From positions 1 through 53,880 of IMG/VR virus record IMGVR_UViG_2617270943_000003: 53,880 bases of DNA. One strand, written 5' to 3'. Each line of letters opens with the position of its first letter. The first letter of the stretch is position 1. The notes beneath the pieces are model-generated. The model saw only the letters and a list, made by a program, of their open reading frames with translations, made no database searches and was not told the origin of the DNA. Source of the DNA: a virus. Taxonomy: Duplodnaviria; Heunggongvirae; Uroviricota; Caudoviricetes. Of the stretch, positions 13,937-38,806 are shown piece after piece. The translations under genes and the position numbers were made by a program.

Positions 13937-14164
13937 ATGATGCGTGCACTTATTGACTTCATTATGGGCTGGCTATTTTGTTCTTTTTTTGTATTATCAT
14001 GTATAGCTACGGTTCTTATTGGAATTTTATGCGGTGTGTCTTTTGTTACATGGGAACTACCAGAAATGCCATCACCTGATGATGCGCTTTATATGTTAAG
14101 GATCATTATTGCTGTTAGTGTATTTGTTGGGTTCTTTTTCGCTGATTCTACTGATGATTTATGA
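13937..14164 (+). CDS. Small membrane protein (two predicted TM helices)
   Basis: MMRALIDFIMGWLFCSFFVLSCIATVLIGILCGVSF...IIIAVSVFVGFFFA; start at ATG 13937 with GAGGA upstream. Confidence 0.4.
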   Translation: MMRALIDFIMGWLFCSFFVLSCIATVLIGILCGVSFVTWELPEMPSPDDALYMLRIIIAVSVFVGFFFADSTDDL

Positions 14165-14165
14165 A

Positions 14166-14399
14166 ATGGCTTTATTTAACCTGTCAGAGCCGCAATTTAA
14201 CGCCGTAAAAACTGCCGCGCGTGCGGCGCTTTCTGCCTGCAAAGCAGAGGTAGAAAGAAACGGCTACAGCGATAAAGCTACGCGGCTGATATTAGAAAAG
14301 CATTATCGCAAGGTCGCCCCGCTAATCAGTATTGAGCGTTTTGTGTGGTTGGTGGGGTATCTGAATAACCGCTGGGGAACAGATCAGGATTATTTCTAA
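14166..14399 (+). CDS. Hypothetical protein
   Basis: ORF 14109-14399; start placed at MALFNLSEPQF (14166), just after the upstream stop. Confidence 0.4.
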   Translation: MALFNLSEPQFNAVKTAARAALSACKAEVERNGYSDKATRLILEKHYRKVAPLISIERFVWLVGYLNNRWGTDQDYF

Positions 14400-14408
14400 G
14401 GGGGCGTA

Positions 14409-14948
14409 ATGAAAAATGATTACGGCGGCAGCCATACGCCGAAAGAAATAAAAGACTTATGGCAAACGCCAAAACCCGTTTTTAGAGGAATGGATCGAGA
14501 ATTCGAGTTCGTCGCGGATGTGGCGGCAAACAAGGCAAACGCATTAATACCGCGATATATAACCGAAGAAATGGACACGCTGCATTATCCGTGGGGAGCG
14601 GTGGCGATGCCTGGTGAGTATGTCTGGATGAATCCGCCATATTCTAATCCGGGGCCATTCGTTGATAAGGCGGCGCTTGAACATCAACGAAATCACATTG
14701 GCTGTGTAATGCTATTGCCCGCTGACATTTCTGTTAGCTGGTTTATGAACGGCGTGGAGACGGCAAACGAATGCCGATTAATTACGCGCGGGCGGCTGGC
14801 GTTTATCAATGCTGCGACGGGTAAACCAGCAAGCGGAAACAATAAAGGGAGTTTGTTCTTGATCTGGCATCCACGATGCAGACATGAATGTATTTTCACG
14901 CAGATAACACGTAAAGAGCTATATGCAAGAGGTGCAGAAAATGAGTAA
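14409..14948 (+). CDS. dam: Phage DNA N6-adenine methyltransferase (Dam-like)
   Basis: Catalytic NPPY motif (WMNPPYSNP) and overall resemblance to the phage N6-adenine methyltransferase family. Confidence 0.75.
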   Translation: MKNDYGGSHTPKEIKDLWQTPKPVFRGMDREFEFVADVAANKANALIPRYITEEMDTLHYPWGAVAMPGEYVWMNPPYSNPGPFVDKAALEHQRNHIGCVMLLPADISVSWFMNGVETANECRLITRGRLAFINAATGKPASGNNKGSLFLIWHPRCRHECIFTQITRKELYARGAENE

Positions 14949-15432
14949 AGCGGCTGAATTGCTAAGACTTGCGGCTGAAACTATTGAGGCAAGAGGGGAA
15001 CAAAACGGATACGATCGAAAAGAAGAAAAATCAGCGCCAAAAATAGCCACTATTTACAACGCTAAGAAGGGGACAAATCTAACCCCGCTTGATGTATGGG
15101 ATCTACTAATTTGTCTCAAGGAGGGGCGATTAGAGGCCATTTTAAGCAATGGTAGCGACCCGCTCGACACTCTTATAGACCTTATTGCTTATAACGCGCT
15201 AAAAGCGGAGCAAATATTAACGGAGCGGGAGGAAGAACAAAGAAAGAAACAGGCTGTTTTTGATATGCCGTTAAATTGCGGCTGCAAGAAAACATCAATA
15301 CCAGGCGACTTGATCGCCGCCAGCGGGATAACGCTAAATGGTAGCCTTTCAAATAGGCTTGATGTGAAGTTTGACAACGAATCACTATTACGCGCGGCGG
15401 GGTATCATAAGAATGGAAAGGGTGACAATTGA
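14941..15432 (+). CDS. Hypothetical protein
   Basis: ORF 14923-15432; start at MSKAAELL with GAGGTG upstream. Confidence 0.45.
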   Translation: MSKAAELLRLAAETIEARGEQNGYDRKEEKSAPKIATIYNAKKGTNLTPLDVWDLLICLKEGRLEAILSNGSDPLDTLIDLIAYNALKAEQILTEREEEQRKKQAVFDMPLNCGCKKTSIPGDLIAASGITLNGSLSNRLDVKFDNESLLRAAGYHKNGKGDN

Positions 15433-15916
15433 CAGGTTATTAGCCTGCGTTTATGTCGCCGTTTTCGTGATCATCAATCTTATTGTTAACCATTGCGGCC
15501 CGTTGGTAATTCCGATCACCACGGTAGCCGCCGTGTGTGTCAATATGATGATCCGTGACTTCCTGTTATATGACGGCGGCTTGAGATGGTCGTCTACAAC
15601 ATGCGCCGCCGCTGGCGCAATCACTGTACTGATAAATTACGACGCCGGAATGGTGGCGATCGCGTCATTTGTCGCGGTTGTTTCCGGTGCGCTTATTTCT
15701 GGCGGCGTTTACCGGGTTTTGCCTGGTGACTTTGATTCTAAACGTTGGCCTGCAAATATAGCGTCCGCCATAGGTGATGCGTTAATTTTCCCGACGCTAT
15801 CGTTTATGGCATTTATGCCGGAAATATCAGCTATGCAATTCATCTCAAAAATGGCAGCGGTAACGGTGATTACTATCATCATGCGCCGCTATTTCACGTT
15901 TGAGGGTAGAAAATGA
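15413..15916 (+). CDS. Polytopic membrane protein (possibly YhhQ/VUT-family transporter-like)
   Basis: About 5 hydrophobic helices; ATG at 15413 (MERVTIDRLL). Family assignment is tentative, from architecture only. Confidence 0.35.
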   Translation: MERVTIDRLLACVYVAVFVIINLIVNHCGPLVIPITTVAAVCVNMMIRDFLLYDGGLRWSSTTCAAAGAITVLINYDAGMVAIASFVAVVSGALISGGVYRVLPGDFDSKRWPANIASAIGDALIFPTLSFMAFMPEISAMQFISKMAAVTVITIIMRRYFTFEGRK

Positions 15917-16677
15917 GCGGGCTTAGAAATTGGGTGGTGTGGTCGCTGTATGACGGCAGCGGGTACGCTGTTAAAGATTGGGCGGACGCTGGTTATAAAT
16001 GTTATTGCTTCAACTATGACGGCGCTAATCACGGTGATTATGACGGGGTAAAAATAATTCATCCAAATATTGAATATGTTAACGTCTGGATTGATAGCCA
16101 TTTTCTGGTAATGTTCTCCCCTGAATTGTCTGTATATCCAGATCCTGACATTATCCTGGGCTTTCCTCCATGCGACAATCTCGCCGTTTCAGGCGCTCGC
16201 TGGTTCGCTGATAAACGGAAAAAAGACCCTGACTTCCAGGTGAAGGCGGCGCATAACGCAAAACTGGTAGAAAAACTGGCGAATATGCATAACGTGCCGT
16301 GGATGGTGGAAAATCCGGTGGGCGCACTGTCAACGTTATGGCGTAAACCGGATTTTATCTTCAATCCGTGCGCTTACGGTGGCTACCTGCCGGAAGATGA
16401 TAAGCATCCCGCTTTCCCGGAATACATTGCCGACCGCGACGCCTACACGAAGAAAACTTGTATTTGGTGCGGGAATGGATTTAAGCAGCCGCTATTCCGT
16501 CCTGTGCCGATGCCAGATGAATGGGAAGACAGTAAGCAGCACGCGAAGTTAGGCGGAAAATCAAAGCGAACAAAGATGATCCGCTCACTAACGCCGCGTG
16601 GCTTCGCCCGTGCTGTATTCCTGGCTAACGACCGGGCCATCAATCGTACTACGCTCAACCGCGTTTTGCCGGACTGA
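15913..16677 (+). CDS. Putative DNA cytosine-5 methyltransferase-like protein
   Basis: Motif IV-like GFPPCDNLAVSG (PC catalytic dipeptide), motif VI-like MVENPVG, motif I-like SLYDGSGYA; short at 254 aa. Confidence 0.5.
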   Translation: MSGLRNWVVWSLYDGSGYAVKDWADAGYKCYCFNYDGANHGDYDGVKIIHPNIEYVNVWIDSHFLVMFSPELSVYPDPDIILGFPPCDNLAVSGARWFADKRKKDPDFQVKAAHNAKLVEKLANMHNVPWMVENPVGALSTLWRKPDFIFNPCAYGGYLPEDDKHPAFPEYIADRDAYTKKTCIWCGNGFKQPLFRPVPMPDEWEDSKQHAKLGGKSKRTKMIRSLTPRGFARAVFLANDRAINRTTLNRVLPD

Positions 16678-16699
16678 AGTTTACAAAATGGCGTCATTG

Positions 16700-16715
16700 T
16701 GTGATGAATGTCACA
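16700..16715. promoter_or_regulatory. Consensus CRP-like palindrome TGTGA-N6-TCACA
   Basis: TGTGATGAATGTCACA read directly; lies between inverted copies of the TACAAAATGG element upstream of the Cys-rich ORF and ninG. Confidence 0.4.
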
Positions 16716-16836
16716 TAATGGCGCTTTGCACCTTGTTAGCACGTATCCATTTTGTATACTTCAAGCAAACAAAATGCTCTTTAAAAATCCGGCAGCGCTG
16801 AAATGCGTAGAAATCACCTGAAAAGGAGAGAGCATT

Positions 16837-17013
16837 ATGCCTTTTGATAATTACCAATGGCATGACGACTATGAACGAGAAAGCGTTATGCGTGCAATGT
16901 GCAATGTATGCAGCACGAAGAAAGGAGGCTGTAACGAGTGCAACGAATGCTTAGAACATTGGCTAAGGGCCGGACACGCCGAAAGGCTGAACGAAACAGA
17001 GAATCAAAAATAA
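16837..17013 (+). CDS. Small Cys-rich protein (58 aa)
   Basis: MPFDNYQWHDDYERESVMRAMCNVCSTKKGGCNECNECLEHWLRAGHAERL; AAGGAGAG Shine-Dalgarno-like sequence upstream. Confidence 0.35.
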   Translation: MPFDNYQWHDDYERESVMRAMCNVCSTKKGGCNECNECLEHWLRAGHAERLNETENQK

Positions 17014-21718: not shown

Positions 21719-21734
21719 TTTAAGGTGATTGCCT

Positions 21735-22559
21735 ATGAAACATCAAGTAATATCGTTCAGTGGCGGAAGGACTTCTGCTTACATGACTCTAGAGGTATTG
21801 AAAATTCACCATGACGCAGAGGTCATCTTTATGGATACAGGGGCTGAACACCCCAAAACATACGAGTTTATAAAGAATTTAGCCTCACACTTCAACATTA
21901 AAATAACTTGCCTCCGCTGCGTTCCTCCTGCAATTAAATACGGTAAATTCAGTTACGAGATCATTGGTATTGATGATGTAAAATATGACCTTGTTCCGTG
22001 GCGGAGAATCCTGGAACATTATGGTCATCCTTATATCGGCGGGGCATTCTGTACTCACAGGATGAAACAGCTACCTTTTGAAAAGTATTGTGATGAACAC
22101 TATGGCAAAGGCAATTACGAACGCTGGTTAGGTATTAGGGCAGATGAGCCACGCAGACTACACGAAAGGGAGGGTTTTCACTATCTGGCAGATATAAGTG
22201 ACTTTGAGAAGCAGGATATTATTGATTGGTGGTCAGGGCAGCCATTTGATTTAGAGATCCCCGAACATCTTGGTAATTGTGTTTTCTGCATTAAGAAGAG
22301 CAACAAGAAGTTGGCATTGGCAGCAAGAGATGAACCTGAACTATATGACCAGTTTTGTAGTTGCATTGCAGAGCATGATTGCAAGGAAGGTAAGCCGGAA
22401 ATGTATCGCAACAAAATGGCATTGCAGGACGTAATAGCGTTGTTCAGACTGGAGGAAACAGAAGGGATACGCAGCAGCATTATTAACAAGAAAGAGTTTG
22501 GTTCAGGCAGTTGTTCTGAAAGCTGCGAGGCTTTCGCTTGTGATAATAACGTGATCTAA
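21735..22559 (+). CDS. PAPS-reductase-like PP-loop ATP pyrophosphatase family protein
   Basis: PP-loop motif ISFSGGRTSAY near the N-terminus and a C-terminal Cys cluster (CSESCEAFAC); ATG at 21735 with AAGGTGA upstream. Confidence 0.6.
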   Translation: MKHQVISFSGGRTSAYMTLEVLKIHHDAEVIFMDTGAEHPKTYEFIKNLASHFNIKITCLRCVPPAIKYGKFSYEIIGIDDVKYDLVPWRRILEHYGHPYIGGAFCTHRMKQLPFEKYCDEHYGKGNYERWLGIRADEPRRLHEREGFHYLADISDFEKQDIIDWWSGQPFDLEIPEHLGNCVFCIKKSNKKLALAARDEPELYDQFCSCIAEHDCKEGKPEMYRNKMALQDVIALFRLEETEGIRSSIINKKEFGSGSCSESCEAFACDNNVI

Positions 22560-38146: not shown

Positions 38147-38806
38147 TTAATTCCAGTTGCAAGCGTTTTTTACTTTGTCGATGTGGTTATAAAGACCATC
38201 AATGTTAAACACTGCTTTCTCAATGTCGCCAGCTTCCGGCACTACTTCAATGATAAATTGTTTTTCGTTAACCAGATTTTTAATCATTGGGATGGCTTTT
38301 TTGTCGTTCCATAATCCAAGAGCTTTATAGTTAGTTGACCGCCCCCATTCAGTGGCTACAGCTTTGTGATCGCCGATCCGGTAGTTAATATAAGTAGCGT
38401 CCCCGGCGTCAGTTACACGGTGTGACCATGCTACGAACATTTTTGTTTTATTACCCTGGCAAGCAATTGTTAATACCGGTTTATTCTTATCCTGTGCCTT
38501 CAGTGCCGGGAAGGCATCAAGACTTCCGCTAAAATGATCTGCTTTCACAAAAAGGAACACGTTTTTTGTGTCCTGCATATCATCTTTTCTTTCGACCACA
38601 AGCCACTGTTTACCAGCTTTTTCTTTTGCTAACTGTGCCTCATATGCGGCTTGTTTTGCTTGTTGTTCCGCAAGCCATTTAGCATTTTTCTCAGCCAATG
38701 CTTGTTGTTCTTGAGTGGTCACTATAGGCGCTTTTTCATTATCCTCATTGCAACCAACCAGACCCAATACCGCCGCAATCATTGCCACTTTTGCTAACTG
38801 TTTCAT
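38147..38806 (-). CDS. Lipoprotein (accessory cassette A, gene 1)
   Basis: Signal peptide with lipobox MIAAVLGLVGC, then an Ala/Gln/Lys-rich helical linker and a C-terminal domain. Confidence 0.6.
   Translation of the reverse strand: MKQLAKVAMIAAVLGLVGCNEDNEKAPIVTTQEQQALAEKNAKWLAEQQAKQAAYEAQLAKEKAGKQWLVVERKDDMQDTKNVFLFVKADHFSGSLDAFPALKAQDKNKPVLTIACQGNKTKMFVAWSHRVTDAGDATYINYRIGDHKAVATEWGRSTNYKALGLWNDKKAIPMIKNLVNEKQFIIEVVPEAGDIEKAVFNIDGLYNHIDKVKNACNWN

Follow-up and report, generated by a model that had tools for sequence, protein, structure and literature searches.

Why would a phage carry the gene for a transporter-like membrane protein between two DNA methyltransferase genes, and does this arrangement point to a base modification that needs an imported precursor? 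This question is raised by positions 14409-16677 of the virus record IMGVR_UViG_2617270943_000003 (Caudoviricetes), a stretch of 53,880 nucleotides (nt) that was analysed as a whole and is hereafter called the window. An earlier note, made from the sequence alone, had described the region as three consecutive genes, encoding a Dam-like methyltransferase, a membrane protein of possible YhhQ/VUT type and a short C5-cytosine-methyltransferase-like protein, and had seen in the second of these a hint of a precursor-dependent pathway. The analysis leads us to a different picture: the region is likely an accessory block in the delayed-early operon of an mEp021-group temperate coliphage, made up of two orphan methyltransferases, a DUF6378 protein and a VUT transporter that stands alone.

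A block of four overlapping genes in an mEp021-group phage

The window extends from an integrase-side open reading frame (ORF) to a tail-fibre ORF and was therefore treated as essentially the whole phage. Its membership of the mEp021 ("mEpimmI") group is seen in positions 14000-17000, which are 96% identical at the DNA level to Escherichia phage MagusPhagus and 86-88% identical to phages mEp010, mEp013, mEp021, mEp044, mEp515 and mEp554. The same interval is matched by E. coli prophages in 35 of 5426 complete genomes. The mEpimmI phages are Nus-dependent, non-lambdoid temperate coliphages (PMC11893012).

Positions 14409-16677 contain four consecutive overlapping genes on the + strand. The outer limits of the earlier description were thus exact, as they coincide with an ORF start at 14409 and an ORF end at 16677, but its count of three genes has to be corrected, a DUF6378 gene having been overlooked. 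The first gene (14409..14948) encodes a phage Dam-type DNA N6-adenine methyltransferase of 179 amino acids (aa) with an NPPY motif, recognised by Pfam, NCBIfam, PHROG and PADLOC. It is followed by a gene (14941..15432, with an alternative start at 14923) for a DUF6378-domain protein of 163-169 aa with a variable C-terminal tail (PF19905, phrog_9871). The third gene (15413..15916, with a TTG at 15371 as alternative start) specifies a small, divergent membrane protein of the YhhQ/VUT family, 167 aa long, which is a putative 7-deazaguanine/queuosine-precursor transporter without a DpdA partner, as judged from phrog_4899 and from its Vut_1 relatives. The last one (15913..16677) encodes a compact Dcm-like DNA C5-cytosine methyltransferase of 254 aa, from the phrog_757 family, as judged from its PHROG match, fold and motifs.

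Judging from the overlaps, which measure 8 nt between the Dam and DUF6378 genes (counted from the 14941 start), 20 nt between the DUF6378 and membrane-protein genes and 4 nt (ATGA) between the membrane-protein and C5 genes, the four genes are co-transcribed and probably also translationally coupled. In a scan for promoters and terminators, no signal inside the block that could divide it exceeded what shuffled sequence gives. The block lies downstream of an ipe-like gene and upstream of NinG, RusA and Q; in mEp phages, a nutR2 site is found just 3' of the methyltransferase gene (PMC11893012).

All four genes are likewise annotated in mEp021 (gp30-gp33), in MagusPhagus and in RefSeq prophages. 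Their order is common to 24 viral contigs and 35 E. coli prophages, and it is also kept in a relative (L084) that is only 54-64% identical. The ratio of nonsynonymous to synonymous substitution rates (dN/dS), computed against seven mEp-group members, indicates purifying selection on all four genes, with values of 0.02-0.26 across the block and of 0.28 in one comparison of the 254-aa gene. Given a strong family match for each of them and dN/dS values of 0.02-0.26, we consider the genes real.

The membrane protein is a divergent YhhQ/VUT homologue

The 167-aa protein matches phrog_4899 (8.8e-46). With the Pfam family Vut_1 (PF02592) it scores 12.4 bits against a cut-off of 27.2, the alignment spanning positions 6-149 of 152. 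A word-indexed protein search returned just 12 close relatives, and an exhaustive phmmer search of 1.8 billion representatives raised this number to 147. Vut_1 was found at E up to 0.001 in 96 of 100 aligned phmmer relatives, and ten relatives checked singly scored 38-53 bits, above the cut-off. Comparison by hhalign gave an E of 2e-4 with the queuosine precursor transporter YhhQ of E. coli and of 2.6e-8 (95% probability) with gp41 of phage CAjan, a putative preQ0 transporter; for the latter pair, the profile comparison was significant, whereas direct BLASTP was not. The homology to YhhQ and to CAjan gp41 covers nearly the whole length of the protein and includes shared conserved polar residues. 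CAjan gp41 is of similar size (159 aa), whereas YhhQ is longer (221 vs 167 aa), and the window protein alone stays below the Pfam threshold. The residues that are invariant or nearly so across VUT relatives are mostly kept (N22, G29, R48, D49, N115, D122, F126, P127 and K146).

The AlphaFold2 (AF2) model of the protein is all-helical, with a pLDDT of 94.2 and helices at positions 2-28, 30-74, 76-102, 107-131 and 136-160. One of these five long helices is long enough for two spans, and six transmembrane segments are annotated in GenBank for the orthologue mEp021_32, so that the earlier wording of a roughly five-helix protein is acceptable. A BFVD fold search with the model was weak: the best match was an unnamed protein (E 8e-3), and a "putative vitamin uptake transporter" followed at E 0.31 with a poor TM-score; this search was not relied on. 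The possibility that the gene is a decaying relic was ruled out by its dN/dS of 0.06-0.10 in comparisons with synonymous divergence (dS) of 0.13-0.35. Taken as a sequence-based assignment, the identification of the protein as a divergent YhhQ/VUT (COG1738) transporter homologue is supported, and the VUT type proposed in the earlier note is borne out by the profiles of its relatives.

In many relatives of the transporter, the length is about 290-335 aa and includes a C-terminal extension of about 140 aa without a Pfam match (P0158, P0169, P0174, P0176, P0178, P0179, P0186, P0187 and P0222). A further relative carries a fused QueF-like domain, and another carries DUF5020.

The transporter lacks its usual DpdA partner

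Distant loci were searched with a 12-sequence alignment of the transporter. In 74 of 80 distant viral contigs (30-37% identity), the transporter gene is directly adjoined, usually with an overlap, by a gene for a DpdA-like 7-deazaguanine DNA transglycosylase; in two of the six exceptions the gene lies at a contig edge. The same pairing is present in Pectobacterium phage PEAT2 (gp18-gp19), Acinetobacter phage AB3P2, Escherichia phage Opt-719 and contig L090. The transporters of the three phages belong to the same small subfamily and are 29-35% identical to the window protein, but the window has no DpdA and instead places DUF6378 upstream of the transporter and the C5 methyltransferase gene downstream. 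The DpdA-like neighbours have no Pfam or PDB sequence match. They owe their identity to phrog_887 "queuine tRNA-ribosyltransferase" (1e-63 to 1e-86), to their GenBank annotation and to hhalign comparison with the genetically validated DpdA of CAjan (E 1e-10, 97% probability). DpdA is regarded as the signature of 7-deazaguanine DNA modification (PMC10516641).

None of the 407 ORFs of the window is a DpdA according to two DpdA-like profiles and CAjan DpdA itself (best E 0.33, <5 bits). Likewise, the Prokaryotic Genome Annotation Pipeline (PGAP) lists neither Que nor TGT genes in a 96%-identical prophage, no queuosine-pathway synthesis gene was added when ten larger window ORFs without functional annotation were scanned with Pfam, and a search of the window for Rfam families, the preQ1 riboswitch among them, came up empty. 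The CAjan genome, on the other hand, has dpdA, folE and queCDE, none of which the window phage possesses. We also considered whether the C5-like gene could be a hidden DpdA; this was ruled out, as its product is modelled with a Rossmann-type methyltransferase fold and is missed by the DpdA profiles. According to published work, YhhQ homologues in phages show no correlation with the type of pathway, and the yhhQ gene of CAjan is dispensable for modification.

DpdA is also absent from the nearest relatives of the transporter, namely L084 (54% identical, same four-gene order), L085-L088 (44% identical, a different type of phage) and L091 (35% identical, a 128-kb phage), and no new neighbour of the transporter gene is shared among them. 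In a neighbour-joining (NJ) tree without bootstrap, the DpdA-less transporters group together on long branches as sister to the DpdA-linked pair of L090 and Opt-719, a topology that is suggestive of a clade of their own. DpdA being missing both here and in the nearest relatives, the transporter would most likely act alone. Plausibly, it brings a base of the queuosine-precursor type into the infected cell, to be used by the pathway of the host itself, and it would not be part of a hypermodification route for the phage DNA.

Behind the DpdA-less transporter gene, two of the contigs whose transporter is 44% identical (L085 6516-8258 and L087 780-2534) have a pair of small unknown genes (136-140 and 144 aa) and, next, an N6_N4_Mtase gene, which makes them a second case of this transporter clade near a DNA methyltransferase. 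The related contig L086 is without that methyltransferase.

Could the transporter-like protein have been re-purposed for a task unrelated to base uptake, such as superinfection exclusion, lysis timing or host takeover? Such a change would be compatible with its divergence to below the Pfam threshold, with the long branches of the separate DpdA-less clade in the unbootstrapped tree, with strong purifying selection in the absence of the usual partner, and with a host that already encodes YhhQ. However, the retention of most (near-)invariant VUT residues argues for a conserved transport mechanism, and no feature of the sequence points to another activity. We therefore regard a change of task as unlikely.

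The precursor-dependent modification hinted at in the earlier note fares worse. It would have the transporter supply an imported precursor to a DNA base modification encoded by the cluster, for instance a non-methyl one introduced by the C5-like enzyme or the DUF6378 protein. The lead was reasonable, since this transporter subfamily is tied so tightly to DNA modification elsewhere through its DpdA neighbour. Moreover, the transporter gene appears to be translationally coupled to the C5-like gene, an uncharacterised protein occupies the usual place of DpdA, contigs L171 and L174 have the order DpdA-VUT-(VRR-NUC)-phrog_757, and PDB entry 8yf3 is an enzyme with the C5-methyltransferase fold that uses a carboxy derivative of S-adenosylmethionine (carboxy-SAM). 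Nevertheless, DpdA, said to be the signature of every known 7-deazaguanine DNA modification, is not found in the phage, and its DpdA-less transporter relatives have no neighbour in common. The C5 family, present in 1516 phage records, is not linked to the transporter either: neither a transporter nor DpdA occurs within 6 kb at any of 59 sampled distant C5-family loci (0/59), and a phrog_757 gene is nearby in only 3 of the 80 transporter loci. In L171 and L174, which are among these three, it comes after DpdA and the transporter, and in L171, which was examined in detail, a VRR-NUC-like gene separates it from the transporter gene. Finally, the chemistry of C5-methyltransferases takes a SAM-type cofactor and not an imported base, and a presumed member of the family makes plain 5-methylcytosine (5mC). 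A pathway of this kind in the window phage is thus very unlikely.

The 254-aa protein is a probable compact C5-cytosine methyltransferase

The product of the fourth gene matches phrog_757 "DNA methyltransferase" (1.1e-87), a family with more than 2300 relatives, mostly of 227-250 aa. Among 50,697 phage records the family is found in 1516, mainly of Escherichia, Klebsiella and Salmonella phages, with a typical length of about 227-236 aa. The protein itself has no match in Pfam (including PF00145), in NCBIfam or among PDB sequences; of 43 relatives, 17 match PF00145 at E up to 1 (best 1.3e-6).

The stretches "GFPPCDNLAVSG" and "ENPVG", on which the earlier C5 assignment was built, are both present. 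The Pro-Cys of motif IV with the catalytic Cys (P85-P86-C87) and the ENV-type glutamate of motif VI (E133-N134-P135) are invariant in the alignment of the 43 relatives, as are G15-S16 and a C-terminal RSLTPRG stretch. The putative SAM-binding loop of motif I reads YDGSG (family consensus FDGSG), a variant of FxGxG that includes the invariant G15 and S16. When compared with the PDB, the family profile hits only C5 methyltransferases (DNMT3B and M.HaeIII), at marginal E-values and with motifs I-IV in register; hhalign of the family with E. coli Dcm aligned motif IV alone (1.3% probability). The structural model has a Rossmann-type methyltransferase fold, its comparison identifies this as the fold of C5 methyltransferases, and DNMT3B, whose target-recognition domain (TRD) is small too, is the best match. 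At the level of modelled fold and motifs, the C5 assignment of the protein holds.

A sizeable TRD between motifs VIII and IX is not present, only about 35-40 residues separating the motif VIII-like strand from the C-terminal helices. The earlier note had concluded from the short length that activity was uncertain. This concern loses its weight in view of a family that is typically even shorter and common in phages, and of an active enzyme, presumably a member, reported in a Drexlerviridae phage. The 711-bp dcm gene of phage K42 (KarlJaspers-like) triggers retron Ec86, and its product makes 5mC, as seen by liquid chromatography coupled with mass spectrometry (LC-MS) on multicopy single-stranded DNA (msDNA) with a CCWGG site; this activity needs C82, E128, K175 and K176, residues found by superposition on DNMT3A (bioRxiv 10.1101/2023.08.16.553469). 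The recognition region of this active 236-aa K42-type enzyme is likewise short, a similarity with DNMT3. Exactly the same four residues are encoded by the 711-bp gene of phage tonijn, whose product shares 58% identity with the window protein across 234 residues; the latter has C87, E133, K180 and K181 at the matching positions. This identity and the conserved residues lead us to place the window protein, by inference, in a family of compact Dcm-like enzymes whose activity has been seen in experiments. The window protein would share with the K42 enzyme the PHROG-level family, the four catalytic residues and a resemblance to the DNMT3 catalytic domain, and differs from it in its length of 254 aa, with short N- and C-terminal extensions, in its recognition stretch and in its location in a temperate phage operon.

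That the protein is instead inactive or a methyltransferase-like protein not directed at DNA is highly improbable: its lack of a Pfam, NCBIfam or PDB sequence match and of a normal TRD would fit such a view, but the catalytic Cys and the ENP motif do not vary among the 43 relatives, dN/dS is 0.05-0.20 in 6 of 7 informative comparisons (the exception being 0.28 against L002, where dS is only 0.006), the best structural match gets by with a small TRD as well, and the 236-aa orthologue-type enzyme methylates CCWGG cytosines by means of residues conserved in the window protein.

The Dam-type methyltransferase and the DUF6378 protein

The assignment of the first gene (14409..14948) as a phage Dam-type N6-adenine methyltransferase is, from its sequence, unambiguous and confirms what had been proposed. 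The protein matches PF05869 over its full length (E 1.4e-51, 175 bits vs a cut-off of 28.1), the NCBIfam equivalog TIGR01712 (140.4 bits vs 97.05), phrog_111 (5e-64) and the PADLOC orphan methyltransferase model (8e-24). The (D/N)PPY catalytic motif is present as NPPY within WMNPPYSNP. The orthologue in mEp021 is annotated as mEp021_30, and dN/dS of the gene is 0.02-0.09. Compared with the phage N6-adenine methyltransferases of PF05869/TIGR01712, which it resembles in its full-length match, scores above curated cut-offs and NPPY motif, the protein shows nothing notably different. GATC is the site at which this family forms N6-methyladenine.

The DUF6378 protein reaches 27.1 bits with PF19905, which is exactly the cut-off, and matches phrog_9871 (8e-17); RefSeq names its orthologues "DUF6378 domain-containing protein". 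Of the four proteins it varies most, with identities of 61-100% and dN/dS of 0.13-0.26, and its C-terminal tail differs strongly between members of the mEp group. A PDB sequence search gave only a chance-level match to SlyA, a PADLOC search gave no match, and mentions of DUF6378 in the literature are limited to annotation. The PHROG label "phosphofructokinase" on related families was judged uninformative. The gene lies directly upstream of the transporter gene and overlaps it, in the place that is held by DpdA in most other phages. Homologues of 35-43% identity have Dam and C5-family genes no farther than about 3 kb away in a separate group of phages of about 44-45 kb (L062, L064-L067 and L069).

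Proposed role of the block

In the arrangement that we favour, of two orphan methyltransferases accompanied by a DUF6378 protein and a solo VUT transporter, the Dam-type and the compact Dcm-like enzymes would most likely methylate the replicating phage DNA with SAM, and the methylated progeny would most likely escape restriction, a role suggested by the families to which the enzymes belong. Under a first-order Markov model, both GATC (274 observed vs 182±12 expected) and CCWGG (113 observed vs 60±7 expected) are over-represented in the window. This enrichment is circumstantial, and it fits a phage relying on methylation and not on site avoidance.

Several observations weigh against this reading. 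The score of the transporter with Vut_1 and the missing PF00145 match of the 254-aa protein have been given above. The membership of K42 Dcm in the same family is deduced from equal gene length and residue numbering in tonijn, a phage of the same subfamily. In addition, the putative recognition stretch of the window protein (about aa 188-215) differs from that of its tonijn orthologue, and CCWGG is therefore only a possible site for it. The authors of the BASEL collection reported no simple link between methyltransferase genes of Drexlerviridae and resistance to restriction. The host E. coli encodes a Dam, a Dcm and a YhhQ of its own, which makes any benefit of the phage copies a putative one. 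Finally, a natural deletion variant exists (L006 5657-6001; protein P0129, 115 aa), in which an in-frame fusion links the N-terminus of Dam with the transporter's C-terminal half. The variant has lost DUF6378 entirely, along with most of Dam and the N-terminus of the transporter, and its C5 methyltransferase gene is intact, so that the Dam, DUF6378 and transporter genes are probably dispensable if the L006 contig is viable.

Other genes in the window

Two further genes of the window may be mentioned. After the Q antiterminator gene, positions 21729-22559 (+ strand) encode a PAPS-reductase-like protein of 276 aa, which matches phrog_33262 (4.5e-91), PADLOC SspD (1.3e-14) and, in its N-terminal part, Pfam PAPS_reduct (2.5e-9). 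Isolated mEp-group phages contain no close copy of it, the best phage match (65%) being in Salmonella phage S4lw, and from this distribution it looks like a strain-specific accessory gene. The C-terminal part of the phrog_33262 profile (495 positions) matches the Dam protein of the window (E 6e-5); the PAPS-reductase-like domain therefore appears to be fused to a Dam-like methyltransferase domain in other phages. Inside the tail-gene region, an ORF on the minus strand (38147-38806, 219 aa) matches Pfam VasI, a family of the type VI secretion system (2e-14), which is unusual for a phage tail module.

Implications

The Dam protein and the compact Dcm-like enzyme are ordinary phage orphan methyltransferases that had already been annotated, and our results leave current understanding unchanged. 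What is new, in a modest way, is the annotation of the "putative membrane protein" as a YhhQ/VUT homologue that has lost DpdA. Overall, three vague annotations ("putative membrane protein", "hypothetical protein" in several records, and "putative cytosine methyltransferase") are replaced by specific, testable assignments in a group of coliphages that is prevalent in the gut.

For genome mining, a phage YhhQ/VUT gene marks a DpdA module well in most phages (74/80) but not in the DpdA-less clade, and without DpdA such a gene should not be taken as evidence of 7-deazaguanine DNA. One may speculate, and we do so with considerable doubt, that the maintenance of this clade under strong purifying selection across diverged phages implies an undescribed function independent of DpdA. 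If so, the function may be the manipulation of the queuosine-tRNA status of the host, or of its 7-deazaguanine pool, during infection; alternatively, it may be the feeding of a modification enzyme other than DpdA, such as the adjacent DUF6378 protein. As for the compact Dcm-like enzyme, if it acts like its Drexlerviridae relative, the temperate phages of this group could also trigger retron Ec86-type defence and carry 5mC in addition to N6-methyladenine (m6A).

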